DNA of 64,000 nucleotides. It comes from Deltaproteobacteria bacterium. GTDB taxonomy: Bacteria > Myxococcota_A > UBA9160 > SZUA-336. Below the pieces are notes generated by a model. It saw nothing but the letters and a program-made list of their open reading frames with translations. It had not been told where the DNA came from and searched no databases. Shown here in pieces: positions 2,165-53,535 of the stretch. The stretch is from positions 6,053 to 70,052 of the forward strand of contig JANNLG010000171.1 in assembly GCA_031396695.1 (NCBI GenBank). The letters are read 5' to 3'. The position numbers were made by a program, and so were the translations under genes. The first letter of the stretch is position 1, and every line of letters begins with the position of its first letter.

Positions 2165-3442
2165 GTGCGCGAGAGCGAGCAACGGACGCGGCCGCGGATC
2201 GTGATCGTGGGCGCCGGCTTCGGCGGCCTGCGCGCGGCGCGCGCGTTGGCGAAGGCCGACGTCTCGATCACGCTCGTGGACCAGCGCAACTACCATTTGT
2301 TCCAGCCGCTGCTCTATCAGGTGGCGACCTCGATGTTGCCGCCCGAGAGCATCGCCTACCCGGTGCGCGCGATCCTGCGCCGCCAGAAGAACCTCGAGTT
2401 CCGGCTCGCGCGCGTGGAGTCGGTCGACTTCGAAAAGCGCGAGCTCACGACCAGCGCGGGACCGATCGGCTACGACCGGCTCGTACTCGCGGTCGGCGGC
2501 CGCACGAACTTCTTCGGGCTCACGTCGGTGGAGCGCAACGGCTTCGGCTTGAAGGATCTCGACGAGGCCGTGAACGTGCGCAACCAGATCCTGCGCAGCT
2601 TCGAACGCGCGCTGCACGAGCCGAGCCCGGAGCGGCGCCGCGCCCACCAGACCTTCGTGGTGGTCGGCGGCGGACCGACCGGCGTCGAGAGCGCGGGCGC
2701 ACTCTCGGAGCTCGTGCGGCTCGTGCTCGCCAAGGACTTCGCCGCGCTCGAGATCAAGGACGTGCGCGTGATCTTGCTCGAGGCGACGCACGCGCTGCTG
2801 GCTGCGCTGCCCGAGAAGCTGCGCGAGGAGACCGCGCTGCGTCTCTGGCACAAGCACGTCGAGGTGCGCTTCGGCGCGCAAGTGGTCGAGTTCGACGGCG
2901 AGCGGGTGACACTGAAAGGTGGCGAGGTGATTCCCGCGCGCACGCTGATCTGGGCGGCGGGCGCGCGCGCGGCGGGCCTGATCGATCGACTCGGCCTGGC
3001 GCAGGGCGCGCAAGGCCGCGTGCGGATCGACGAGACGCTGCGCGTGCTCGACCACGACGACGTGTTCGCGATCGGCGACGCGGCCTTTCTAGAGCGCGCG
3101 GGTCAGCCGCTGCCGATGATGGCGCCGGTCGCCATGCAACAGGGCGAGCTGGTCGCGCGCAACGTCACGCGATCGCTCGAAGGCGCGCCGCTCGAGCCGT
3201 TCGCGTACCGCAACCCCGGTTCGCTCGCGACGATCGGCCGCAACGCCGCGGTCGCGCACCTGGGCCGCTTCGCGTTCACGGGCTTTCTCGCGTGGCTGCT
3301 CTGGCTGGCCGTCCACGTCGCGCAGCTGATCGGCTTTCGCAACAAGCTGCTCGTGCTGCTCGAGTGGGGCTGGGAGTACTTCACCTACGAACGAGCGGTG
3401 CGCCTGATCACCGCCGATCAGGTGCGCGAGCGCGGCGACTGA
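2165..3442 (+). CDS. ndh: Type II NADH dehydrogenase (NDH-2, FAD/NAD-binding pyridine nucleotide-disulfide oxidoreductase).
   Basis: IVIVGAGFGGLRAARALAKADVSITLVDQRNYHLFQPLLYQVATS... is the canonical NDH-2 N-terminus with two Rossmann GxGxxG motifs. Confidence 0.9.
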   Translation: MRESEQRTRPRIVIVGAGFGGLRAARALAKADVSITLVDQRNYHLFQPLLYQVATSMLPPESIAYPVRAILRRQKNLEFRLARVESVDFEKRELTTSAGPIGYDRLVLAVGGRTNFFGLTSVERNGFGLKDLDEAVNVRNQILRSFERALHEPSPERRRAHQTFVVVGGGPTGVESAGALSELVRLVLAKDFAALEIKDVRVILLEATHALLAALPEKLREETALRLWHKHVEVRFGAQVVEFDGERVTLKGGEVIPARTLIWAAGARAAGLIDRLGLAQGAQGRVRIDETLRVLDHDDVFAIGDAAFLERAGQPLPMMAPVAMQQGELVARNVTRSLEGAPLEPFAYRNPGSLATIGRNAAVAHLGRFAFTGFLAWLLWLAVHVAQLIGFRNKLLVLLEWGWEYFTYERAVRLITADQVRERGD

Positions 3443-3474
3443 ACCCGCGCGCGCGCGATCGGGTAGCATCGGGC

Positions 3475-4425
3475 ATGGCCAAACCCTTCCGCTTCGCGGT
3501 GCAGGTCTCGACGCTCCCCGCCGACGGCTGGATCGAGCGCGTGCGCTCGTACGAGCGACTCGGCTTCTCCACGGTCTTCTGCCCCGATCACTTCGGGCCG
3601 CAGTGGGATCCGACTGCGCTGCTCGCGGCGGCCGCCGCGGTCACGACACGACTCAATGTCGGGTCGCTGGTGTACGACGTCGACTACCGCCACCCCGTGA
3701 TCCACGCCAAGGGCGCCGCGACGATCCAGCTGCTCTCCGGCGGGCGGCACGAGTTCGGCATCGGCGCGGGTTGGATGCAGACCGACTACGACGAGGCGGG
3801 CATGCCTTACGACCGCCCAGGCCTGCGCATCGAGCGGCTCGACGAGGCGCTGCAGATCATCAAGAGCATGTGGGAGAACGAACGCACCACGTTCTCGGGC
3901 AAGCACTACAAGATCACCAACATCGCGAAGGCCGCCGAGCTGCCGGCCGGCGCGCGGCCCAAGATCCTGATCGGCGGTGGAGGACCGCGCGTGTTGCGGC
4001 TCGCGGGCCGGCACGCCGACATCGTCGGCATCAATCCGAGCCTGCCCGAGGGCAAGATCACGCGAGACAGTGCCGCCGATCTCGCGCCCGAGCGGCTCGA
4101 CGAGAAGCTGCGCCACGTGCGCGCGGGCGCGGAGGCCGCGGGCCGACGTTTCGACGAGATCGAGCTGAACTCGCTGACCTTCGTGGTGGCGATCACGGAT
4201 GATGCCTCGGGCCTGCGCGCGGGCCTGGCCGCGAACAGCGGAATGTCGGTCGAGCAGGTCGCGAACTGCCCGATCTTCCTGACCGGCTCCGCGGCGGAGA
4301 TCCGCGACGGGCTCGAGAAGCGGCGCGAGCGCTACGGGCTCTCGTACATCGTGATCCAGGGCCGCGATCCGGCCATGGTCGAGAAGTTCGCCGAGCTGAT
4401 CGTGGCGCCGCTGTCCGGCAAGTGA
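3475..4425 (+). CDS. Luciferase-like monooxygenase (LLM) family flavin/F420-dependent oxidoreductase.
   Basis: ATG at 3475 (MAKPFRFAVQVSTLP...) after trimming the 3292 ORF, which overlapped ndh. TIM-barrel LLM motifs are present (GFSTVFCPDHF, IGAGW, KILIGGGGPRVLRLAGRHADIVGIN). Confidence 0.8.
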   Translation: MAKPFRFAVQVSTLPADGWIERVRSYERLGFSTVFCPDHFGPQWDPTALLAAAAAVTTRLNVGSLVYDVDYRHPVIHAKGAATIQLLSGGRHEFGIGAGWMQTDYDEAGMPYDRPGLRIERLDEALQIIKSMWENERTTFSGKHYKITNIAKAAELPAGARPKILIGGGGPRVLRLAGRHADIVGINPSLPEGKITRDSAADLAPERLDEKLRHVRAGAEAAGRRFDEIELNSLTFVVAITDDASGLRAGLAANSGMSVEQVANCPIFLTGSAAEIRDGLEKRRERYGLSYIVIQGRDPAMVEKFAELIVAPLSGK

Positions 4426-9018: not shown

Positions 9019-9786
9019 GTGTTGCTTCTCTCCTGGAACGTGAATGGGCTGCGCGCCGCCGGCCGCGGCGGTTTTCTGGACTGGTTCGCAGGCCAGCGCC
9101 CGTTCGCGGTGTGCGTGCAGGAGATCAAGGCTCGGCCCGAGCAGCTCTCGGACGAGCTGCGCAACCCGCACGGCTACCACGCCTACTACCACTCGGCCGA
9201 GACGCCTGGCTACAGCGGTGTGGCCACCTTCACGCGTGAAGAGCCGCTCGCGGTGGTGCACGGCATCGGCTCGAAAGAGTTCGACCGCGAGGGCCGCGTG
9301 CTGCGCACCGAGTTTCGCGACTTCGTGCTGGTGAACGCGTATTTCCCGAACAGCCAGCGCGACCATGCGCGGCTCGACTACAAGCTGCGCTTCTGCTCGG
9401 CGATGCTGCGGCTGATGAACGGCTATCGGCGCTCCGGCAAGCACGTGCTCTTGTGCGGCGACTACAACATCTCGCACGCCGAGATCGATCTGGCGAACCC
9501 GCGCGAGAACCGCCTGAACGCGGGCTTCCTGCCGGAGGAGCGCGCCTGGATGGATCGCTTCCTGGCACGCCACGGCTGGATCGACACTTTTCGGAGTCGC
9601 TGCCCCGAGCCGGGGCACTACACCTGGTGGAGCAACCGGCCCGGCGTGCGCGAGCGGAACATCGGTTGGCGGCTGGACTACTTCGTCGCGAACCTCGAGC
9701 TGATGGACCGCGTCGCGCGCATCGAGCACCAGACCCAGGTGCGCGGCTCCGACCACTGTCCTGTGGCGCTGAAGGTGCGGGACTAG
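9019..9786 (+). CDS. xth: Exodeoxyribonuclease III (EEP-family AP endonuclease).
   Basis: GTG at 9019 gives VLLLSWNVNGLRAA..., the typical Xth N-terminus, with catalytic motifs CVQEIK, LCGDYNISH and SDHCPV at the C-terminus. About 255 aa. Confidence 0.85.
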   Translation: MLLLSWNVNGLRAAGRGGFLDWFAGQRPFAVCVQEIKARPEQLSDELRNPHGYHAYYHSAETPGYSGVATFTREEPLAVVHGIGSKEFDREGRVLRTEFRDFVLVNAYFPNSQRDHARLDYKLRFCSAMLRLMNGYRRSGKHVLLCGDYNISHAEIDLANPRENRLNAGFLPEERAWMDRFLARHGWIDTFRSRCPEPGHYTWWSNRPGVRERNIGWRLDYFVANLELMDRVARIEHQTQVRGSDHCPVALKVRD

Positions 9787-10616
9787 ATGTCGTAGGTCGG
9801 GTCGATCGAGCCCGACTCCGAATCCTTGTGCTTGACCTGGAGCTGCGGCGGCGTGATCTGCACGCGCGAGAAGGCCGGCACCGATTCGTGTAGCCAGACG
9901 TTGCCGCCGATCACCGAGCCCTCGCCGATCACGGTGTCGCCACCGAGGATGGTCGCGTTCGGGTAGATCGTGACGTCGTCCTCGATCGTCGGGTGGCGCT
10001 TCTTGCCGGAATCCAGCCTGCCCTGCTTGTTCGAGAACGCTCCGAGCGTGACGCCGTGGTACATCTTGACGCGGTTGCCGATCACCGCGGTCTCGCCGAT
10101 CACCACGCCCGTGCCGTGATCGATGAAGAAGTGGCAGCCGATCGACGCGCCGGGATGGATGTCCATGCCGGTCTTGCTCTTGGCGTGCTCGCTCATGATG
10201 CGCGCCGCGACCGGCGCGCCGAGTTCGTAGAGTACGTGCGCGATGCGGTAGGTCGAGACGGCGTACGCCGACGGATACGCGGCGATCACCTCCGCGTACG
10301 ACTTCGCCGCGGGATCTCCCTTGAAGGCGGCCTCGACGTCCATGCCCACGCAGTGCCGGATGTCCGGCAGATGCTCCAGGAACTTCGATGCGAGATCGGA
10401 GCCGATCAGCCCCGAGAGCAGGCCGTGCACGACTTCTAGATCGGAGTTGAGCCGCTCGTGCGGGGTCTGCTCCAGCACGATCGCGCGCAGATTCTCGAGC
10501 ACGTCGACCACCCGCCGGGTATCGGGGCAGGCCTGACGACGCGCAACGCTCACGGGATCGTTCTGATCGCGCTTGGCGATCAGATGATTCGCGATGGATT
10601 CGGTCAAGGTGGACAT
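9783..10616 (-). CDS. cysE: Serine O-acetyltransferase.
   Basis: ATG at 10616..10614 (MSTLTESIANHLIAKRD...). SATase N-terminal domain plus hexapeptide repeats (DIHPGASIGCHFFIDHGTGVVIGETAVIGNRVKMYHGVTLG). Confidence 0.9.
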   Translation of the reverse strand: MSTLTESIANHLIAKRDQNDPVSVARRQACPDTRRVVDVLENLRAIVLEQTPHERLNSDLEVVHGLLSGLIGSDLASKFLEHLPDIRHCVGMDVEAAFKGDPAAKSYAEVIAAYPSAYAVSTYRIAHVLYELGAPVAARIMSEHAKSKTGMDIHPGASIGCHFFIDHGTGVVIGETAVIGNRVKMYHGVTLGAFSNKQGRLDSGKKRHPTIEDDVTIYPNATILGGDTVIGEGSVIGGNVWLHESVPAFSRVQITPPQLQVKHKDSESGSIDPTYDI

Positions 10617-10728
10617 GTCTCGGACTCCCTTCACCTCTGACCTCCCGCCCCGGCGGAAGGTTACGCGTGGGCCCGGCATTTTCAAAGCGGGCCCGAAGCC
10701 CCATACTGGCCCGGCCTCTGGGGGGAGC

Positions 10729-11592
10729 GTGACCGAGTACAGCCACTCGCGCCTGTCGTCGTTCGAGAACTGCCCCCGCCAGTTCAAGTACCGCTACGTC
10801 GACCAGATCAAAGTCGACACCGAGGGCGTCGAGGCGTTCATGGGCAAGCGTGTCCACGAAATCCTCGAACGCCTCTACCACCACGTGGCGCGCAACGCGA
10901 AGCCGCCCAGCCTGGCGCAGGTGCTGGAGCGCTACAAGCAGGACTGGGAGCGGAGCTGGCACGCCAAGATCCAGATCGTGCGCAAGGAGAACTCGCCCGC
11001 GTATTACTCGGAGCGCGGCGCGCGCTGTCTGGAGAACTACTACCGCGGCCACTACCCGTTCACGAGCGGCGAAACGATCGCGCTCGAAGAGCGGCTGCGA
11101 CTCCGGCTCGACACCGATGGGCGTTACAAGATGCTCGGCATCGTCGACCGCATCGTGCGCACCGGCGACGGCGCGTTCGAGATCCACGACTTCAAGACCA
11201 GCGCGAACCTGCCGCAGCAGCGCAGCATCGACCGCGACCGCCAGCTCGCGCTGTACCAGATCGGGCTCGAGCAGACCTATCCCGACGTGAAGGAGGTCGA
11301 GCTGGTCTGGCACTACTTGATCCACAACAAGACGCTGCGCTCGCGGCGTTCGCCCGAGGCGCTGGTGGAACTGCGCCGGGCGACCATGGCGGTGATCGAC
11401 GCGATCGAGGCGGAGTCCGAGTTCCGCGCGCGGCCGGGGCCGCTGTGCCGCTGGTGCGACTACGCGAGCATCTGTCCCGAGGCGCCCGGGGCGGCGCGTT
11501 CGTCCGCTCCGGATCGGCCGGAGTTCGCCGCGCAGCTCGCGCCCGAGCCCGACGACGACTTCGGCCGCCAGCTCTCGCTGCTCGGGGATTGA
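10729..11592 (+). CDS. PD-(D/E)XK nuclease family protein (Cas4/RecB-like, with a 4-Cys cluster).
   Basis: GTG at 10729: VTEYSHSRLSSFENCPRQFKYRYVD... is the typical N-terminus. Catalytic ...DRIVRTGDGAFEIHDFKTS... and C-terminal CRWCDYASIC complete a Cas4/AddB-type Fe-S ligand set. Confidence 0.75.
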   Translation: MTEYSHSRLSSFENCPRQFKYRYVDQIKVDTEGVEAFMGKRVHEILERLYHHVARNAKPPSLAQVLERYKQDWERSWHAKIQIVRKENSPAYYSERGARCLENYYRGHYPFTSGETIALEERLRLRLDTDGRYKMLGIVDRIVRTGDGAFEIHDFKTSANLPQQRSIDRDRQLALYQIGLEQTYPDVKEVELVWHYLIHNKTLRSRRSPEALVELRRATMAVIDAIEAESEFRARPGPLCRWCDYASICPEAPGAARSSAPDRPEFAAQLAPEPDDDFGRQLSLLGD

Positions 11593-13943: not shown

Positions 13944-15086
13944 CTACAGAGCCTTCGCCGCCTCTTCGAGCGCGACCACCACGTGATAGACGCTGGTCGC
14001 GTTCTGCGCGTCCGAGATCACGCGCCCGTCGCGCGCGAGCTGCTCGAACCAGCCGTGCGTCTTGGGATCGACGTGACGAGCGAAGCAGTAGCGCAAGCCG
14101 GCTTCCAGCTCGCGCCGCGCGATCGCGTCGCCCGTCGCCCGCGCGCGCGCGGCCAGCGCCTTGACGCGCTCGGTCTGCGGCCACAGTCGCTTGGTCACGG
14201 CGAGCGTCCGGCCCTCGGCGTCGATCTGGTCGAAGACTCCGCCGTCGGTGTCGACGCCCAAGCGGCGGCCGAACTCGAAGAGCCGATCGGACAGCGCGCG
14301 CGCCGCGTCGCTCGGCGCGAGCGACTGCAACCGATCGAGCAGCCAGACCCACTCGAAGTGATGCCCGGGCTCGACGATGCGCCCGGCATCGCCCGCGAGC
14401 GGCCGCCAGTGGGAGTCGAAGTGTTCGCCGAGCGCGCCCGTGCGCGCGTCGAGCCAGCGCGCGCCGAGCAGCTCCACGAGCGAGCGCGCGTCGCGCAGCG
14501 CGCCGCTGTCGGGCGCGACCTCGGCCAGCACCAGTAGCGCCTCGACCAAGTGCATGTGCGGGTTCTGTCGCCGCGGCCCCGCGAGCGGCTGCCAGTCCTC
14601 GCTCGCGGTCTCGAAGAAGCCACCCGAAACGGGATCGCGCAGCCGTTCGCGCAGGAGCTCGAGCGTCGCGCTCGCCAGCCGCAGGGACTCCGGCTCGCCG
14701 CTTGCCCGGTGGTGCTCGGCGAGCGCGAAGATCGCGAACGCATGCCCGTACAGATCCTTGCGTCGGTCGAGCGGCGCGCCCGCCTCGTCGGTGGTGGTGA
14801 ACCAACCGCCGAAGCGCGGGTCCCAGAAACGCGCGTGCAGGAACTCGAGTCCGTGCGCCACCGCGTTTCGCGCCCACGCGCCGGCGCCAAGTTCCGACGC
14901 GCGCGTGAACGCGAAGATCTGGCGCGCGTGGACCAGGAGTCGCTTGTGACCGTCGGGCAGCGGCGCCAGATCGGGTCCGAGCCGGTTCCAGTAGCCGCCG
15001 CGGTTGCGATCGAGACCGTGCCGTTCCCAGAGCGGCAGCAGCTCGTCGACCAGATGCGCGCGCAGCGTCAGGCGCGAGTGCTGCAT
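13944..15086 (-). CDS. N-acylglucosamine 2-epimerase (AGE) family epimerase/isomerase.
   Basis: ATG at 15086..15084 (MQHSRLTLRAHLVDELLPLWERHGLDRNRGGYW...). It has the alpha/alpha-6 barrel AGE-family pattern. The upstream 61 codons of the ORF are junk. Confidence 0.8.
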   Translation of the reverse strand: MQHSRLTLRAHLVDELLPLWERHGLDRNRGGYWNRLGPDLAPLPDGHKRLLVHARQIFAFTRASELGAGAWARNAVAHGLEFLHARFWDPRFGGWFTTTDEAGAPLDRRKDLYGHAFAIFALAEHHRASGEPESLRLASATLELLRERLRDPVSGGFFETASEDWQPLAGPRRQNPHMHLVEALLVLAEVAPDSGALRDARSLVELLGARWLDARTGALGEHFDSHWRPLAGDAGRIVEPGHHFEWVWLLDRLQSLAPSDAARALSDRLFEFGRRLGVDTDGGVFDQIDAEGRTLAVTKRLWPQTERVKALAARARATGDAIARRELEAGLRYCFARHVDPKTHGWFEQLARDGRVISDAQNATSVYHVVVALEEAAKAL

Positions 15087-15093
15087 CGCTCGC

Positions 15094-15435
15094 TCACGAC
15101 AGCGCGTCGGTGTAGGCCTCCGCGTTCCAACCGACCAGCAGCGTGTCGCCGACCACCAGCGCCGGCGCGCGCAGATTTCCGGTCGGCCCGAGGACGGCCT
15201 CGACGATCTCGTCGGGCGCTTTTCCGCCGGGCGTGAAGCTGCGCAGCGCTTTGCCTTTCGCCACGACAACGCGCCTCGCGGCCTTCACCAGCTTCGCGGC
15301 GTCGGCCTTGCCGAGCTTCTTGCTCGCAGAAACCGTCGCGACCGGCTCGATCTTCCTGGCGTCCAGAAACTTGGACGCTCGTTCGCAACTGGTTCAACCG
15401 TTGCGGTGGTAGTACCAGTCGATGCGCTTGGCCAT
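15094..15435 (-). CDS. ArsC/Spx/YffB-family thioredoxin-fold protein with an in-frame TGA at codon 14 (15396..15394). It is a candidate selenoprotein with a U-T-S-C redox motif. The ORF track shows only its C-terminal 64 aa (15094..15288).
   Basis: Minus-strand ATG at 15435..15433 is preceded by GGAGGG, then MAKRIDWYYHRNG-[TGA]-TSCERASKFLDARKIEPVATVSASKKLGKADAAKLVKAARRVVVAKGKALRSFTPGGKAPDEIVEAVLGPTGNLRAPALVVGDTLLVGWNAEAYTDALS*. It aligns by eye with YffB/ArsC-family proteins ([21 protein letters not shown]...KRPLL-x-GFS), with the TGA exactly at the first Cys of CxxC. A hairpin follows 15 nt downstream. Confidence 0.6.
15356..15393 (-). promoter_or_regulatory. Candidate bacterial SECIS-like hairpin immediately 3' of the in-frame UGA.
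   Basis: mRNA: UGA-ACCAGUUGCGAACGA-GCGUCCA-AGUUUC-UGGACGC. A 7-bp GC-rich stem has a 6-nt loop containing GU, and the stem begins 15 nt after the UGA. Confidence 0.35.
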
Positions 15436-15475
15436 GCGATCCACCCTCCGATTCGGAGATCGAGCTTAGCAAGCG

Positions 15476-15697
15476 TCAGGCGGGGACGGACTCCCCGCCC
15501 GCGAGACAGACGCTCGGGGCGCGCTGGCGGCGCTCGCCGTGGGTCTCGGCGAGCAGATCGTGCACCGTCTCGCGGCAGCCGCCGCAGCTCGAGCCCGCGC
15601 CGCACATCTCGGCGACCTGACAGGGCGTGCGAGCGCCCGCACGCGCGGCGTGCTGGATTTCGCGGTCGGTCACGGCGTGGCAGCTGCACACGATCAT
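15476..15697 (-). CDS. bfd: Bacterioferritin-associated ferredoxin (BFD-like [2Fe-2S] protein).
   Basis: ATG at 15697..15695: MIVCSCHAVTDREIQHAARAGARTPCQVAEMCGAGSSCGGCRETVHDLL shows the classic Bfd C-x-C...C-x2-C pattern and is about 73 aa. Confidence 0.75.
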   Translation of the reverse strand: MIVCSCHAVTDREIQHAARAGARTPCQVAEMCGAGSSCGGCRETVHDLLAETHGERRQRAPSVCLAGGESVPA

Positions 15698-15718
15698 GAC
15701 CGACAGCCTACCTCGGAT

Positions 15719-15737
15719 GATAATGACAATCAATTAC
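15719..15737. promoter_or_regulatory. Fur-box-like operator.
   Basis: GATAATGACAATCAATTAC matches the 19-bp Fur consensus GATAATGATAATCATTATC at about 15 of 19 positions. It lies in a low-GC intergenic region 22 nt upstream of the bfd ATG and is divergent from lemA. Confidence 0.45.
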
Positions 15738-18242: not shown

Positions 18243-20585
18243 CTATCGGGGGGCCGAACGCCTGTCAACGCGAATGCCGAGCAAGCGCCGCATCAGCGCG
18301 CCGAGATCGGGGTCGGAGAACATGCCGAGTGTCTCGTAGACTCTCGCGAGGCGATCGCGCACGTCGCTCGAGCGCGGCGCGAGCGCGATCTCGCGCGCGC
18401 AGTCCGTCATCGCCGAGGCGTCGGTCCGGCGCACGACCTGGCGCAGCGCAAGCACCGAGAACGGCGCCATCGAGAGCTCCTCGATTCCCATGCCGATCAA
18501 GAGCGGCGCCACGACCGGATTGCCGCCGAGTTCCCCGCACAGCGAGCACGGGATGCCGGCCGCGCGCGCCGCATCGACGCTGCGCTGGATCTCGGACAGC
18601 ACACCGGGATGGAACGGATCGTAGATCCCGGCCACGCGCTCGTTCTCGCGGTCGGTGGCGAGCGTGTACTGCATCAGATCGTTGGTGCCGATCGAGAAGA
18701 AGTCGGAGCGCGCGGCCAGGTGCTGCGCGATCGCGACCGCGGCGGGCGTCTCGATCATGACACCGAGCGGTGGCATGGCCGCGCCGAGCTCCGCGCAGAC
18801 CGCCAGCAGGTGCTCGCGCGCCGCCTCGAGCTCGTCCACCGACGCGATCATCGGCAGCATGATGCGCAGGTTGCCGGTGCCGTTCGCGCGCACGATCGCG
18901 CGCAGCTGTGCGCGAAACAGCTCGGGCCGGTCGAGCAGGATGCGGATCGCGCGCCAGCCGAGCTGCGGGTTCGCCTCTTCGATCGACTCGCCGGACAGCG
19001 CCTTGTCGCCGCCCAGATCGAAGCAGCGGATCACCACCGGGTCGGGGGCGATCTGCGTCGCCACGCGCAGGTACGCGCGCTGCTGCTCGTCCTCTTCGGG
19101 CACGCCGCGCGAGCCGAGCGCGAACACCTCCGTGCGCAACAAGCCGATGCCTTCCGCGCCGTAGCGCTTCACCAGATCGACGTCGGAGAGTCCGCCGACG
19201 TTGGCCGAGAGGCGGATCTTGCGGCCGTCGCGCGTCTCGCTCGGCAGGCCGCGCAGCTCGTCGAGCCGTCCGCGCGTCTTGCGATAGCGCCCGGAGATCA
19301 CCGTGTACTCGGCTCGCTGTGCGCGCGTGGGCGCCGCGATCACCACACCCTCGAGCCCGTCGACGATCACCTCGTCTTCGGGTCGCAGCCGCGCCGCGAT
19401 GCGCGCCACGCCGGAGACGGCCGGGATCTCGAGCGAGCGCGCGAAGATCGCGGAGTGACTGGTCGGCCCGCCGTGCTCCGTCACCAGCCCCGCGATCTTC
19501 TCGGTTTCGAGCAGCACGAACTCGCTCGGCGCGATCGCCGACGCGACCACGATCACGCCGTTGCGCAGCGGCGGATTGTGCAGTCGCACGCCGAGCAGCT
19601 CGCCGACCGCGCGCTGCAACACGTCCTCGACGTCGGCGGCGCGCTCGCGCACGGTCGCGTCGGGCGTCGCGGCGAAAATCGCCGCGTAGCCCTGCATGGT
19701 CTCCACCAGCGCGCGCGCGCCGTTGCCGTGCAAATCGACGCCGCGGCGCAGCTTGGCGCGAAAGCCCTGGTCTTCGAGGATCATGATGTGGGTGGTGAAG
19801 ACGTCTGCGAGCTCCTCGCCGAAGCGCTCGCCGACGCTCCCGCGCAGGTCGTTCAGCTGGCGCACGGTTTCGCGCAACGCGCGCTGCACGGCGCGGAACT
19901 CCGCCGCAGGCGTGCGCGCCGGCTCGTAGTCGATCGCACCCAGATCGAGCCGCGGCGCGATCAGGTGCACACGTCCGCGCGCGATGCCCGGTGAATTGCC
20001 GTTGCCGCGCAGCACCGTGCCGCGCGCGAGCGGCTCGGGCGCGCTGGCGGCGAAGCGTCTACCCGGAGCGCTCTCGCGCAGCGCGCGATCGAGCAGCCGC
20101 GCGTTGAGCACGATTGAGCCCACCTGCGCCGCGATCATCTCGAGCAGCTCGAGCTGCTCGGGCGGGAACACGCGCACGCGCGCGGTGCGCGCGGTCAGCA
20201 CACCGACCGGCTCGCCGCGCACCAGCAGCGGCACCGCCACCAGCGAGCGGAAGCGCTGCTCGCCCGAGAACGACACGGTCTGCACGCGTGTGTCGAGTCG
20301 AACGTCCGGCACCGCGATCGTCTCGCGCTGCTGCAGCGCGCGGCCCGCGATGCCCTGGCCGAGCCGGATGCGCACGCGCCCGACGGCCTGCGGGTTCAGG
20401 CCGCGCGTCGCGCGCAGCACCAACGTCTCGCCGTCCTCTTCGAGCACGTAGATCGAGCACGCCGAGGCGTGCATCCAGCGCGCGACCAGACGCACGACGT
20501 TTTCGAGCGTCTCCGCGAGGTCGTGACTGCGCGTGAGCAGCCGGCCGACGTCGCGCAGAAAGTTCGCGGATGCGCCTCGAGGCAT
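18243..20585 (-). CDS. ptsP: Phosphoenolpyruvate-protein phosphotransferase PtsP (GAF domain + enzyme I, the nitrogen-PTS EI-Ntr type).
   Basis: An N-terminal GAF domain is followed by EI motifs (GGPTSHSAIFARSLEIPAVSG, IGTNDLMQYTLATDR, CGELGGNP). Confidence 0.9.
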   Translation of the reverse strand: MPRGASANFLRDVGRLLTRSHDLAETLENVVRLVARWMHASACSIYVLEEDGETLVLRATRGLNPQAVGRVRIRLGQGIAGRALQQRETIAVPDVRLDTRVQTVSFSGEQRFRSLVAVPLLVRGEPVGVLTARTARVRVFPPEQLELLEMIAAQVGSIVLNARLLDRALRESAPGRRFAASAPEPLARGTVLRGNGNSPGIARGRVHLIAPRLDLGAIDYEPARTPAAEFRAVQRALRETVRQLNDLRGSVGERFGEELADVFTTHIMILEDQGFRAKLRRGVDLHGNGARALVETMQGYAAIFAATPDATVRERAADVEDVLQRAVGELLGVRLHNPPLRNGVIVVASAIAPSEFVLLETEKIAGLVTEHGGPTSHSAIFARSLEIPAVSGVARIAARLRPEDEVIVDGLEGVVIAAPTRAQRAEYTVISGRYRKTRGRLDELRGLPSETRDGRKIRLSANVGGLSDVDLVKRYGAEGIGLLRTEVFALGSRGVPEEDEQQRAYLRVATQIAPDPVVIRCFDLGGDKALSGESIEEANPQLGWRAIRILLDRPELFRAQLRAIVRANGTGNLRIMLPMIASVDELEAAREHLLAVCAELGAAMPPLGVMIETPAAVAIAQHLAARSDFFSIGTNDLMQYTLATDRENERVAGIYDPFHPGVLSEIQRSVDAARAAGIPCSLCGELGGNPVVAPLLIGMGIEELSMAPFSVLALRQVVRRTDASAMTDCAREIALAPRSSDVRDRLARVYETLGMFSDPDLGALMRRLLGIRVDRRSAPR

Positions 20586-52080: not shown

Positions 52081-53535
52081 ATGGTCGGGTGGCTCTGGCT
52101 CGCTCCGTTCATCCTCGCCTTCACACCGACGGCGATCTGGCTGTACCAGCGCGGCACGCAATCGGCGTTCAGCGAGGTGCACACGCTGTTCATGCCGCTC
52201 GTGCTCGCGTACCTGATTCGCGAGCAGCTGAAGCTCGATCCGGACCCGACCCCGCGCTCGTCAGCACTGGGCTTCCTGTTCGTCGTGCCCGCGCTGGCGC
52301 TGGTCGCGCTCGACGCGGCGATGCACACGCAGATGCTGGGCGCGATCGCGCTGGTGATTGCGCTGCCGGGGATCTCGCTGCTCCTGCTCGGCACGCGCCG
52401 CACGCGCGAGCTCGCGTTCCCGCTCGCGCTGGCCGTGTTCATCGTGCCGATTCCCACGGGCATGCTGACGCCGCTCTACAGCGTGCTGCGGCCGATCGCC
52501 GCGATCGGCACGACCTGGCTGGTGCCGCTGTTCGGCATGCCGATCGCGCGCGTCGGCACGGCGCTCTCGGTGCCGGGACTCGCGGTCGAGGTCGCGGACA
52601 ACTGCTCCGGCTGGTCGTCGCTGCAGGCCGCGGTGATCACGGCGCTGGTGCTCGCGCACTTCTCGAGCTCGAAACAGCGGAGGCTCGCGCTACTGCTCTC
52701 CGCCATCCCGGTCGCGATCGTCTGCAACATCCTGCGCGTGACCGCGCTCGTGTTGCTGGCGCAACGCTACGGCGCCGAGCTGCTCGACACCACGCTGCAT
52801 CCCGCGTCGGGCGTGATCCTGTTCGGTGTCGTGATCGCGGTGCTGTTCGCGATCGCGGGACCCGACGCCATGCGCTCGGCCAAGGCTTCGGGCCAGCGCG
52901 TCGTCGTCGCGACGCGCTACGCGCTGGCGCTCGCGGCGCTCTGCGCGCTCGCGCTGATCCCGGTCGGCATGCACTCGACCGCGCGCCTGCGCGGCGACGA
53001 CTGCGCGAACGCCGCCGCGCTCGTGCCCTCGGACGGAAGCGTCGATCCCGCCCGCGCGCTGTTGATGCAGCAGCAGTACAAGGCCTCGCAGTGGCGCGAG
53101 GGTACGCTGCCGGCAACCGCGGACACGCCGGCGCTTCGCTACGCCGTGATTCGCAACTACGAACCGAGGCTGCTCTACTACCGCGGCTCGCGCCGGCTCT
53201 GGCAGGACGTCGAGCCTGGCGCCGACACCATCGAGTGGCTGGAGTCCGACGACGGCCGGCTGCCGATCGTGCGCTCGCAGCTCGCGGGCGATCGGCCGGG
53301 GCAGCCGCGCGCGGTGATCGCGTCGCTGCTCGTCTACGAGGGCGAGCCCGTCGAAACCGGCTGGCGCGCGCAGCTCCGCGCGGCGCCGCGCCAGATGTTC
53401 ACGGGCAGTCGCCCGATGACCTTGTTCACGGTACGGGGTGACGTGCAGGGCGGCGATCACGCGGCGGTGGAAAAGCGCGCGCACGCGTACCTGCTCGATT
53501 CGTGGCGAACCTACCGGGCTCTGTGCCGGCACTGA
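52081..53535 (+). CDS. Exosortase (Xrt) family transpeptidase fused to a C-terminal EpsI-like domain.
   Basis: Eight TM helices with the exosortase catalytic Cys and Arg motifs (...VEVADNCSGWSSL...CNILRVTAL...), then a soluble C-terminal domain resembling EpsI (...SDGSVDPARALLMQQQYKASQWREGTLPAT...IASLLVYEGEPVETGWRAQL...). Confidence 0.75.
   Translation: MVGWLWLAPFILAFTPTAIWLYQRGTQSAFSEVHTLFMPLVLAYLIREQLKLDPDPTPRSSALGFLFVVPALALVALDAAMHTQMLGAIALVIALPGISLLLLGTRRTRELAFPLALAVFIVPIPTGMLTPLYSVLRPIAAIGTTWLVPLFGMPIARVGTALSVPGLAVEVADNCSGWSSLQAAVITALVLAHFSSSKQRRLALLLSAIPVAIVCNILRVTALVLLAQRYGAELLDTTLHPASGVILFGVVIAVLFAIAGPDAMRSAKASGQRVVVATRYALALAALCALALIPVGMHSTARLRGDDCANAAALVPSDGSVDPARALLMQQQYKASQWREGTLPATADTPALRYAVIRNYEPRLLYYRGSRRLWQDVEPGADTIEWLESDDGRLPIVRSQLAGDRPGQPRAVIASLLVYEGEPVETGWRAQLRAAPRQMFTGSRPMTLFTVRGDVQGGDHAAVEKRAHAYLLDSWRTYRALCRH

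Follow-up and report, generated by a model that had tools for sequence, protein, structure and literature searches.

A hairpin downstream of an in-frame UGA is very likely the SECIS element of an ArsC-like UxxC selenoprotein gene

We analysed a GC-rich hairpin in the window (the whole 64-kb stretch of DNA under study) and conclude that it is, very likely, the SECIS element of an ArsC-like selenoprotein gene whose in-frame UGA is decoded as selenocysteine (Sec); SelB binding and Sec insertion would be expected from what is established about Sec decoding in bacteria. The hairpin is real, and its significance comes from its conservation and not from its thermodynamics. The SECIS interpretation proposed in an earlier note on this DNA is supported by conservation, by covariation and by the contrast between Sec- and Cys-containing forms of the gene, with the binding of SelB itself presumed by analogy. 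Both the bacterial SECIS type and the ArsC-like UxxC selenoprotein family have already been catalogued; the copy in the window is an ordinary member, and no new mechanism or family is established here.

Anatomy of the hairpin and of its gene

The features of the gene and of its two neighbours are collected in Table 1. The earlier note had described a perfect 7-bp stem with a 6-nt, GU-bearing loop located 15 nt past an in-frame UGA, and this can be read directly on the minus strand: all seven pairs are Watson-Crick, G and U occupy loop positions 2 and 3, and the distance from the UGA to the loop is 22 nt. The interval given there, 15356-15393, takes in the spacer and the hairpin and runs 3 nt beyond it. 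From the ATG, the frame reads MAKRIDWYYHRNG-TGA-TSCERASKFLDA... over 114 codons counting the stop, and the redox motif G-U-T-S-C occupies residues 13-17, which places a UxxC near the N-terminus. The stretch GGAGGGTGGATCGCATG of the Shine-Dalgarno region is also found in the closest orthologue (L001). Neither pair counts nor RNAalifold on the orthologues revealed any conserved pairing among the spacer columns.

Table 1. Positions in the window of the selenoprotein gene, its hairpin and the neighbouring genes
Feature	Position	Strand	Remarks
BFD-like [2Fe-2S] small protein, upstream neighbour	15476..15733	minus	Pfam PF04324, 53.6 bits; mechanical ORF limits
Shine-Dalgarno-like GGAGG	15449..15445	minus	9 nt from the ATG at 15435; read from the sequence
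ArsC-like UxxC selenoprotein gene	15094..15435	minus	113 codons plus stop TGA (15096..15094)
ATG start codon	15435..15433	minus	
In-frame UGA, codon 14, read as selenocysteine (very likely)	15396..15394	minus	aligns with Cys in full-length homologues
Spacer ACCAGUUGCGAACGA, 15 nt, from UGA to stem	15393..15379	minus	encodes T-S-C-E-R, including the resolving Cys of UxxC
SECIS (very likely) stem, 5' arm GCGUCCA	15378..15372	minus	RNAfold, pair counts, RNAalifold
Apical loop AGUUUC	15371..15366	minus	G 15370, U 15369 and U 15368 are nt 27-29 counted from the U of the UGA
SECIS (very likely) stem, 3' arm UGGACGC	15365..15359	minus	RNAfold, pair counts, RNAalifold
AGE-family protein (N-acylglucosamine/cellobiose 2-epimerase-like), downstream neighbour	13944..15086	minus	NCBIfam under curated cutoffs, family level only

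The protein family and its annotation

The product is predicted to be a 113-residue ArsC/Spx-like thioredoxin-fold protein with a U-x-x-C motif, for which general knowledge of such proteins would suggest a redox function. With U replaced by C in the protein for the profile queries, it matched NCBIfam NF041106 (ArsC_rel_Se_1, 'ArsC family (seleno)protein') at 112.4 bits against a cutoff of 85 (E = 1.5e-32, residues 5-108 of 113). The Pfam ArsC model stayed far under its threshold (12.7 bits vs 24), Pfam Glutaredoxin was likewise sub-threshold, and the sole PDB relative by sequence is the putative arsenate reductase 2m46 (E = 0.005). The NF041106 family is listed among selenoproteins as 'Arsenate reductase-like protein, UxxC' (PMC13188914). 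The window protein agrees with this family in its whole-protein match, in having the UxxC at the family position and in the existence of Cys homologues, and no difference was found; as a copy it belongs to a Myxococcota-like lineage, sharing 88% identity with a Myxococcota MAG. The 2008 GOS selenoproteome (PMC2398784) contains an 'Arsenate reductase 2, UxxC' that probably represents the same family, although the two are likened without a sequence match. The 'Arsenate reductase 1' selenoprotein reported from the Sargasso Sea and GOS (UxxS; TIGR00014 / pfam03960; PMC2398784) shares the ArsC/Spx-like superfamily and an N-terminal Sec, but it carries UxxS and matches true ArsC models, whereas the window protein carries UxxC and fails the ArsC model, which makes it a member of a different family.

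A genomic scan with one genome per species provided the 80 best loci matching residues 1-113. The UGA codon is TGA in all 80 of them, and all are collinear across it. Judging by record titles, these orthologues include members of Myxococcota (among them the best one), Acidobacteriota, Gammaproteobacteria, Spirochaetales, Planctomycetaceae, Binatia, Eisenbacteria, Actinomycetota, Opitutales and Bdellovibrionales. The 13 codons ahead of the UGA are constrained at the protein level, with W, Y, R and G invariant in 81 sequences (the window and its 80 orthologues). The window gene thus has what a functional definition of a bacterial SECIS asks of the coding sequence, namely an in-frame UGA aligned with Cys and conserved coding sequence on both sides of it.

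The protein search returned 182 relatives, most of which are 79-99 aa long and cover only 69-86% of the query, and are therefore gene calls that start after the UGA. Full-length relatives have Cys at the UGA column, within the motif YYHRNG-C-TxC. Most public calls are N-terminally truncated (79, 84, 90, 96 or 99 aa) and are unnamed or called 'hypothetical protein', and they include P0011 of the closest Myxococcota MAG. The selenoprotein is systematically mis-annotated in public gene calls. The main value of recognising the UGA together with the hairpin lies accordingly in annotation: it restores the N-terminal UxxC redox centre that is missing from the truncated calls, and it would mark the organism as a selenium user.

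Folding energy and chance expectation

The hairpin GCGUCCA-AGUUUC-UGGACGC is the minimum free energy structure found by RNAfold for pieces of 38, 45 and 57 nt, with energies of -11.9 kcal/mol (38 nt) and -12.3 kcal/mol (45 nt), and -10.9 kcal/mol for the isolated hairpin. For a piece of 67 nt, however, RNAfold favours a different, extended structure that starts at the UGA and has the apical hairpin UUUCUGG-ACG-CCAGGAA. This extended fold was rejected: in the orthologues, 59.6% of its cells are paired vs 59.3% in shuffles, with no excess of covariation. The folding check proposed in the earlier note is thus borne out for the three shorter pieces and not for the longest one, whose alternative fold the orthologues do not support.

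The thermodynamic signal of the hairpin alone is only marginally better than chance. In the shuffle test, the 38-nt piece had z = -2.2 and was equalled or bettered by 8 of 200 shuffles, and the 45-nt piece had z = -1.4. The window has a GC content of 71%, and in 128 kb there are 413 hairpins with a perfect stem of 7 bp or more that are equally stable or more so and have a G in the first two loop positions. The chance of finding such a hairpin at the permitted distance after any given codon is about 7%. The earlier statement that a structure of this kind inside a coding region would otherwise be unexplained was consequently too strong, as comparable hairpins are frequent in so GC-rich a window. 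Because they are common, the hairpin alone is weak evidence, and it is the comparison with related sequences that carries the case for a SECIS.

Conservation, covariation and synonymous-site constraint

An alignment of 70 nt starting from the UGA, free of gaps, was obtained for the 81 sequences, and its RNAalifold consensus consists of the GCGUCCA/UGGACGC hairpin only. Stem positions are paired in 95.8% of cells, compared with 89.2 +/- 0.6 for column shuffles and 27-37% with slid 3' partners, although many of the compared sequences are related and the cell counts overstate the number of independent events. Compensatory changes occur at 4 of the 7 stem pairs: pair 1 changes from G-C to U-A, and pair 3 is found as G-C, C-G, A-U, G-U and U-G. 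Some of these double changes come at the cost of amino-acid changes, as when Ala/Asp-Ala becomes Ser/Asp-Asp or GCG/GAC becomes GCC/GAG. The hairpin is thus conserved in Sec-containing orthologues, which the earlier note had made a condition for its reading. In the loop, G27 and U29 are invariant and U28 is kept in at least 90% of 81 orthologues.

Third codon positions tell a similar story. Their entropy inside the hairpin is 0.10 at Ser7 (UCC), 0.00 at Lys8 (AAG) and 0.10 at Leu/Met10, against 1.4-1.8 at the equally conserved residues Ala23, Ser24, Ala32 and Gly-1 outside it. The loop Lys codon is always AAG, even in the AT-rich loci L064 and L073, which use AAA elsewhere. These patterns in the aligned sequences argue for selection at the RNA level on synonymous sites within the hairpin. 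The gene offers a clean example of an RNA signal that limits codon choice, and even amino-acid choice, within a coding region.

Comparison with SECIS models and with the E. coli fdhF element

A search of the whole window against Rfam gave no match at the gathering threshold; with E up to 10, the region 15250-15500 yielded just three sub-threshold matches (13.0-13.4 bits, E 3.8-6.5). Since Rfam gave no match, a public bacterial SECIS model was not applicable, and a family-specific covariance model was built instead from 79 orthologues, with the window left out. This model scored the minus-strand segment 15396..15349 at 64.5 bits (E = 7.6e-20), its sole strong match in 128 kb. The covariance scoring suggested earlier is hence favourable, by our own model and not by a public one. 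The runner-up (14.4 bits, 19809..19855, minus) matches the flank UGAACGAxCUGC only, shows no hairpin, and carries a TGA that is not in the frame of the ptsP-like ORF 18243..20585; we judged it a chance match.

Zhang and Gladyshev's bSECIS model (bSECISearch), for which we follow the summary in PMC13188914, specifies a loop of 3-9 nt on a stem of 4-16 bp, a G at loop position 1, 2 or both, with G or U as the usual next letter, a UGA-to-loop distance of 16-37 nt, and a minimum free energy of at most -7.5 kcal/mol. The window hairpin has a 6-nt loop on 7 bp, a loop A-G-U-U-U-C with G at position 2 and then U, a distance of 22 nt, and an energy of -11.9 kcal/mol in the 38-nt piece. All four published features of a bacterial SECIS are therefore present, in agreement with the SelB-type geometry that the earlier note had recognised. 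Compared with the bSECIS consensus, the element is of the same kind, a stem-loop inside the ORF directly 3' of the Sec-UGA, with a sequence specific to the ArsC-like family. In contrast to bSECIS elements in general, the stem and the position of the GUU are unusually invariant across bacterial groups in this family.

The SECIS of E. coli fdhF, a SelB ligand characterised by experiment, has G23 and U24 in its loop, a bulged U17, and a minimal stem-loop 11 nt after the UGA (PMC8659212). The window hairpin shares with it the position right after the UGA, the G-U of the apical loop and the presumed reader, which is the C-terminal domain of SelB. It differs in that it lacks a bulged U, has a spacer of 15 nt instead of 11, and carries the GU at nt 27-28, which is 4 nt further from the UGA. 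Its 6-nt loop is AGUUUC, and there is no conserved lower helix, as the extended fold is unsupported. The window hairpin does not have the bulge, the spacer length or the GU position of the fdhF type and is not a copy of the fdhF element, but by analogy it would work like one.

Sec-forms versus Cys-forms

A wider set comprised 150 Sec-forms and 15 Cys-forms. A metagenome scan seeded with Cys-forms mostly returned further Sec-forms and just 8 extra Cys-forms. A second Sec subfamily (U-TSC-xKAQGFLAx) has the hairpin CGCAGG-GGUUC-CUUGCG, whose 3' side is displaced by one position. One pair of this hairpin covaries as GC (29 sequences), UA (18) and CG (6), and its GUU is likewise located at nt 27-29 from the U of the UGA. 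Counting either register, all 7 pairs are formed in 107/150 Sec-forms vs 1/15 Cys-forms, the latter being a small control. At least 5 of the 7 pairs, in one of the two registers, are present in 144/150 Sec-forms vs 4/15 Cys-forms, and GUU stands at nt 27-29 in 141/150 vs 2/15. A simple bSECIS-style scan (energy at or below -7.5 kcal/mol) was passed by 110/150 Sec-forms vs 2/15 Cys-forms (Fisher p = 7.6e-6; Mann-Whitney p = 2.7e-6 for the difference between the two forms); random positions within these loci pass it in about 10% of cases. The spacing from UGA to loop is 22 or 23 nt in 142/150 Sec-forms. Equal presence of the hairpin in Cys-containing orthologues, which would have told against a SECIS, was thus not found. 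The structure goes with UGA and not with UGC or UGU: it covaries in the Sec-forms and is absent from the Cys-forms, with one exception (L081).

This exception, L081:193-262 (P0010), is a Cys-form with TGT at the position of the UGA and is the most similar full-length Cys-form (59% identity). It retains the complete GCGUCCA/UGGACGC stem, and its loop has changed from AGUUYN to GAUUCC. From its sequence, the stem looks like the remnant of a SECIS in a gene that has recently changed from Sec to Cys.

Four other loci (L087, L126, L131 and L133; U-TSC-KRSDAFLEGR and similar) lack, in the 50 nt after the TGA, both registers as well as the GUU at nt 27-29. L087 folds instead as a bulged stem CCGAC-G-CCU/AGG-GUCGG with the loop ACUUCG, in which neither of the first two positions is a G. 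This third Sec group may have a SECIS outside the standard model.

Alternative explanations

An accident of GC-rich coding, in which the codons for A-S-K-F-L-D-A happen to be self-complementary and the hairpin has no function at the RNA level, is what the abundance of compliant hairpins, their roughly 7% chance of lying at the right distance and the modest shuffle scores would lead one to consider, all the more as the peptide A-S-K-F-L-D-A is itself strongly conserved. However, synonymous third positions are frozen in stem and loop while being free at equally conserved residues elsewhere. Compensatory double changes, some of them costing amino-acid changes, also speak against an accident, as do the second subfamily, which has other residues and yet retains the hairpin and the position of the GUU, and the lack of the hairpin in most Cys-forms of the protein. 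We regard this explanation as very improbable. The UGA could also be a real stop codon, with the true start downstream and the hairpin acting as a regulatory element, for example by coupling translation or by attenuation behind a leader peptide of 13 codons. Most database proteins are indeed called as 79-99 aa with GTG, ATG or TTG starts after the UGA, and the terminator of the gene is also UGA. But the called starts differ between orthologues over the five lengths given above and are hence artefacts, and a product shortened in this way would have neither the redox motif nor the first strand of the fold. Moreover, the 13 upstream codons are protein-conserved and align with the N-terminus and the first CxxC Cys of full-length Cys homologues, and a Shine-Dalgarno sequence and an ATG are located upstream of the UGA. 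We hold a real stop to be very improbable.

Reassignment of UGA to Trp or Gly (genetic code 4 or 25), which would make a SECIS needless, is hinted at by three database homologues (P0055, P0063 and P0076) whose stored sequences show W where Sec would stand (...RKG-W-TSC...). For P0055, however, the DNA (L087:601-945) has TGA and the stored protein is not obtained under code 11, so the W apparently stems from the way in which the source translated it. The window gene itself ends in TGA 7 nt before the ATG of the next gene, and the upstream bfd-like gene also ends in TGA. Such a reassignment is, in our assessment, extremely improbable, and Sec decoding directed by the hairpin remains the reading that we adopt.

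Proposed mechanism and Sec machinery

In bacterial Sec decoding, SelB is known to carry Sec-tRNASec, to bind the SECIS hairpin by its C-terminal winged-helix domains and to bring the tRNA to the UGA, where it competes with RF2 (PMC8659212). By analogy, when a ribosome reaches the UGA at 15396..15394, the stem-loop GCGUCCA-AGUUUC-UGGACGC would form in the mRNA, 15 nt past this codon. SelB would then bind this hairpin with its C-terminal winged-helix domains, mainly via the exposed G-U of the loop, which is the expected contact. The SelB-GTP-Sec-tRNASec complex would thereby be tethered by the A site, and the UGA would be read as selenocysteine and not by RF2.

ARAGORN found no tRNA-Sec in the 64-kb window and reported a tRNA-Ala only. 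This tRNA-Ala (CGC; 4281-4365, minus) is, at 85 nt and with its anticodon at 39, longer than the usual tRNA-Ala, and it overlaps the mechanical ORF 3292..4425 on the plus strand. No selA, selB or selD was found among the 10 size-appropriate ORFs scanned in the window; nine of these correspond to acetoacetate-CoA ligase, exosortase, enoyl-CoA hydratase, serine acetyltransferase, methyltransferase, radical SAM, FolC, AGE epimerase and histidine kinase, and one had no match. The absence of sel genes from a 64-kb sample is uninformative.

Bacteria whose labels place them in at least 8 major groups carry the 20-nt module GCGUCCA-AGUUYN-UGGACGC with hardly a letter changed and with its GUU fixed at nt 27-29. 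One could imagine that this module serves as a SelB ligand of unusual universality and that it dictates the peptide A-S-K-F-L-D-A; we put this forward as a speculative possibility that is rather unlikely to hold. If it were true, it would point either to a gene that has recently spread by horizontal transfer and taken its SECIS along or to a portable, high-affinity SECIS that works across phyla.

Genomic surroundings and other observations in the window

The AGE-family gene begins 7 nt after the stop codon of the selenoprotein gene. The true start of the BFD-like ORF is probably the internal Met of MIVCSCHAV. Across the 80 loci, the BFD-like neighbour is syntenic in L001, L002 and L006 only, and the AGE neighbour in L001, L002 and L009. 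We considered synteny as a clue to function and discarded it, because neighbours common to just three or four of the closest relatives among 80 are uninformative for the family. Beyond the divergent intergenic region are genes for LemA and a TPM-domain protein, and after these come Fur and a GAF-PtsP gene.

At 15479-15500, about 45 nt upstream of the selenoprotein ATG, there is an inverted repeat of 8 bp, rich in GC (GGCGGGGA...UCCCCGCC). It falls within the last codons of the BFD-like gene (stop 15478..15476), has no T-run, and is partly conserved in L001.

Elsewhere, the window carries genes for an exosortase-family protein and an EpsC-type serine O-acetyltransferase (52081-53535, plus, and 9783-10787, minus). 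The former scores above the cutoff of the 8TM_EpsH subfamily model and below that of the XrtA model. Together, the two genes suggest a PEP-CTERM/exopolysaccharide system in another part of the window.
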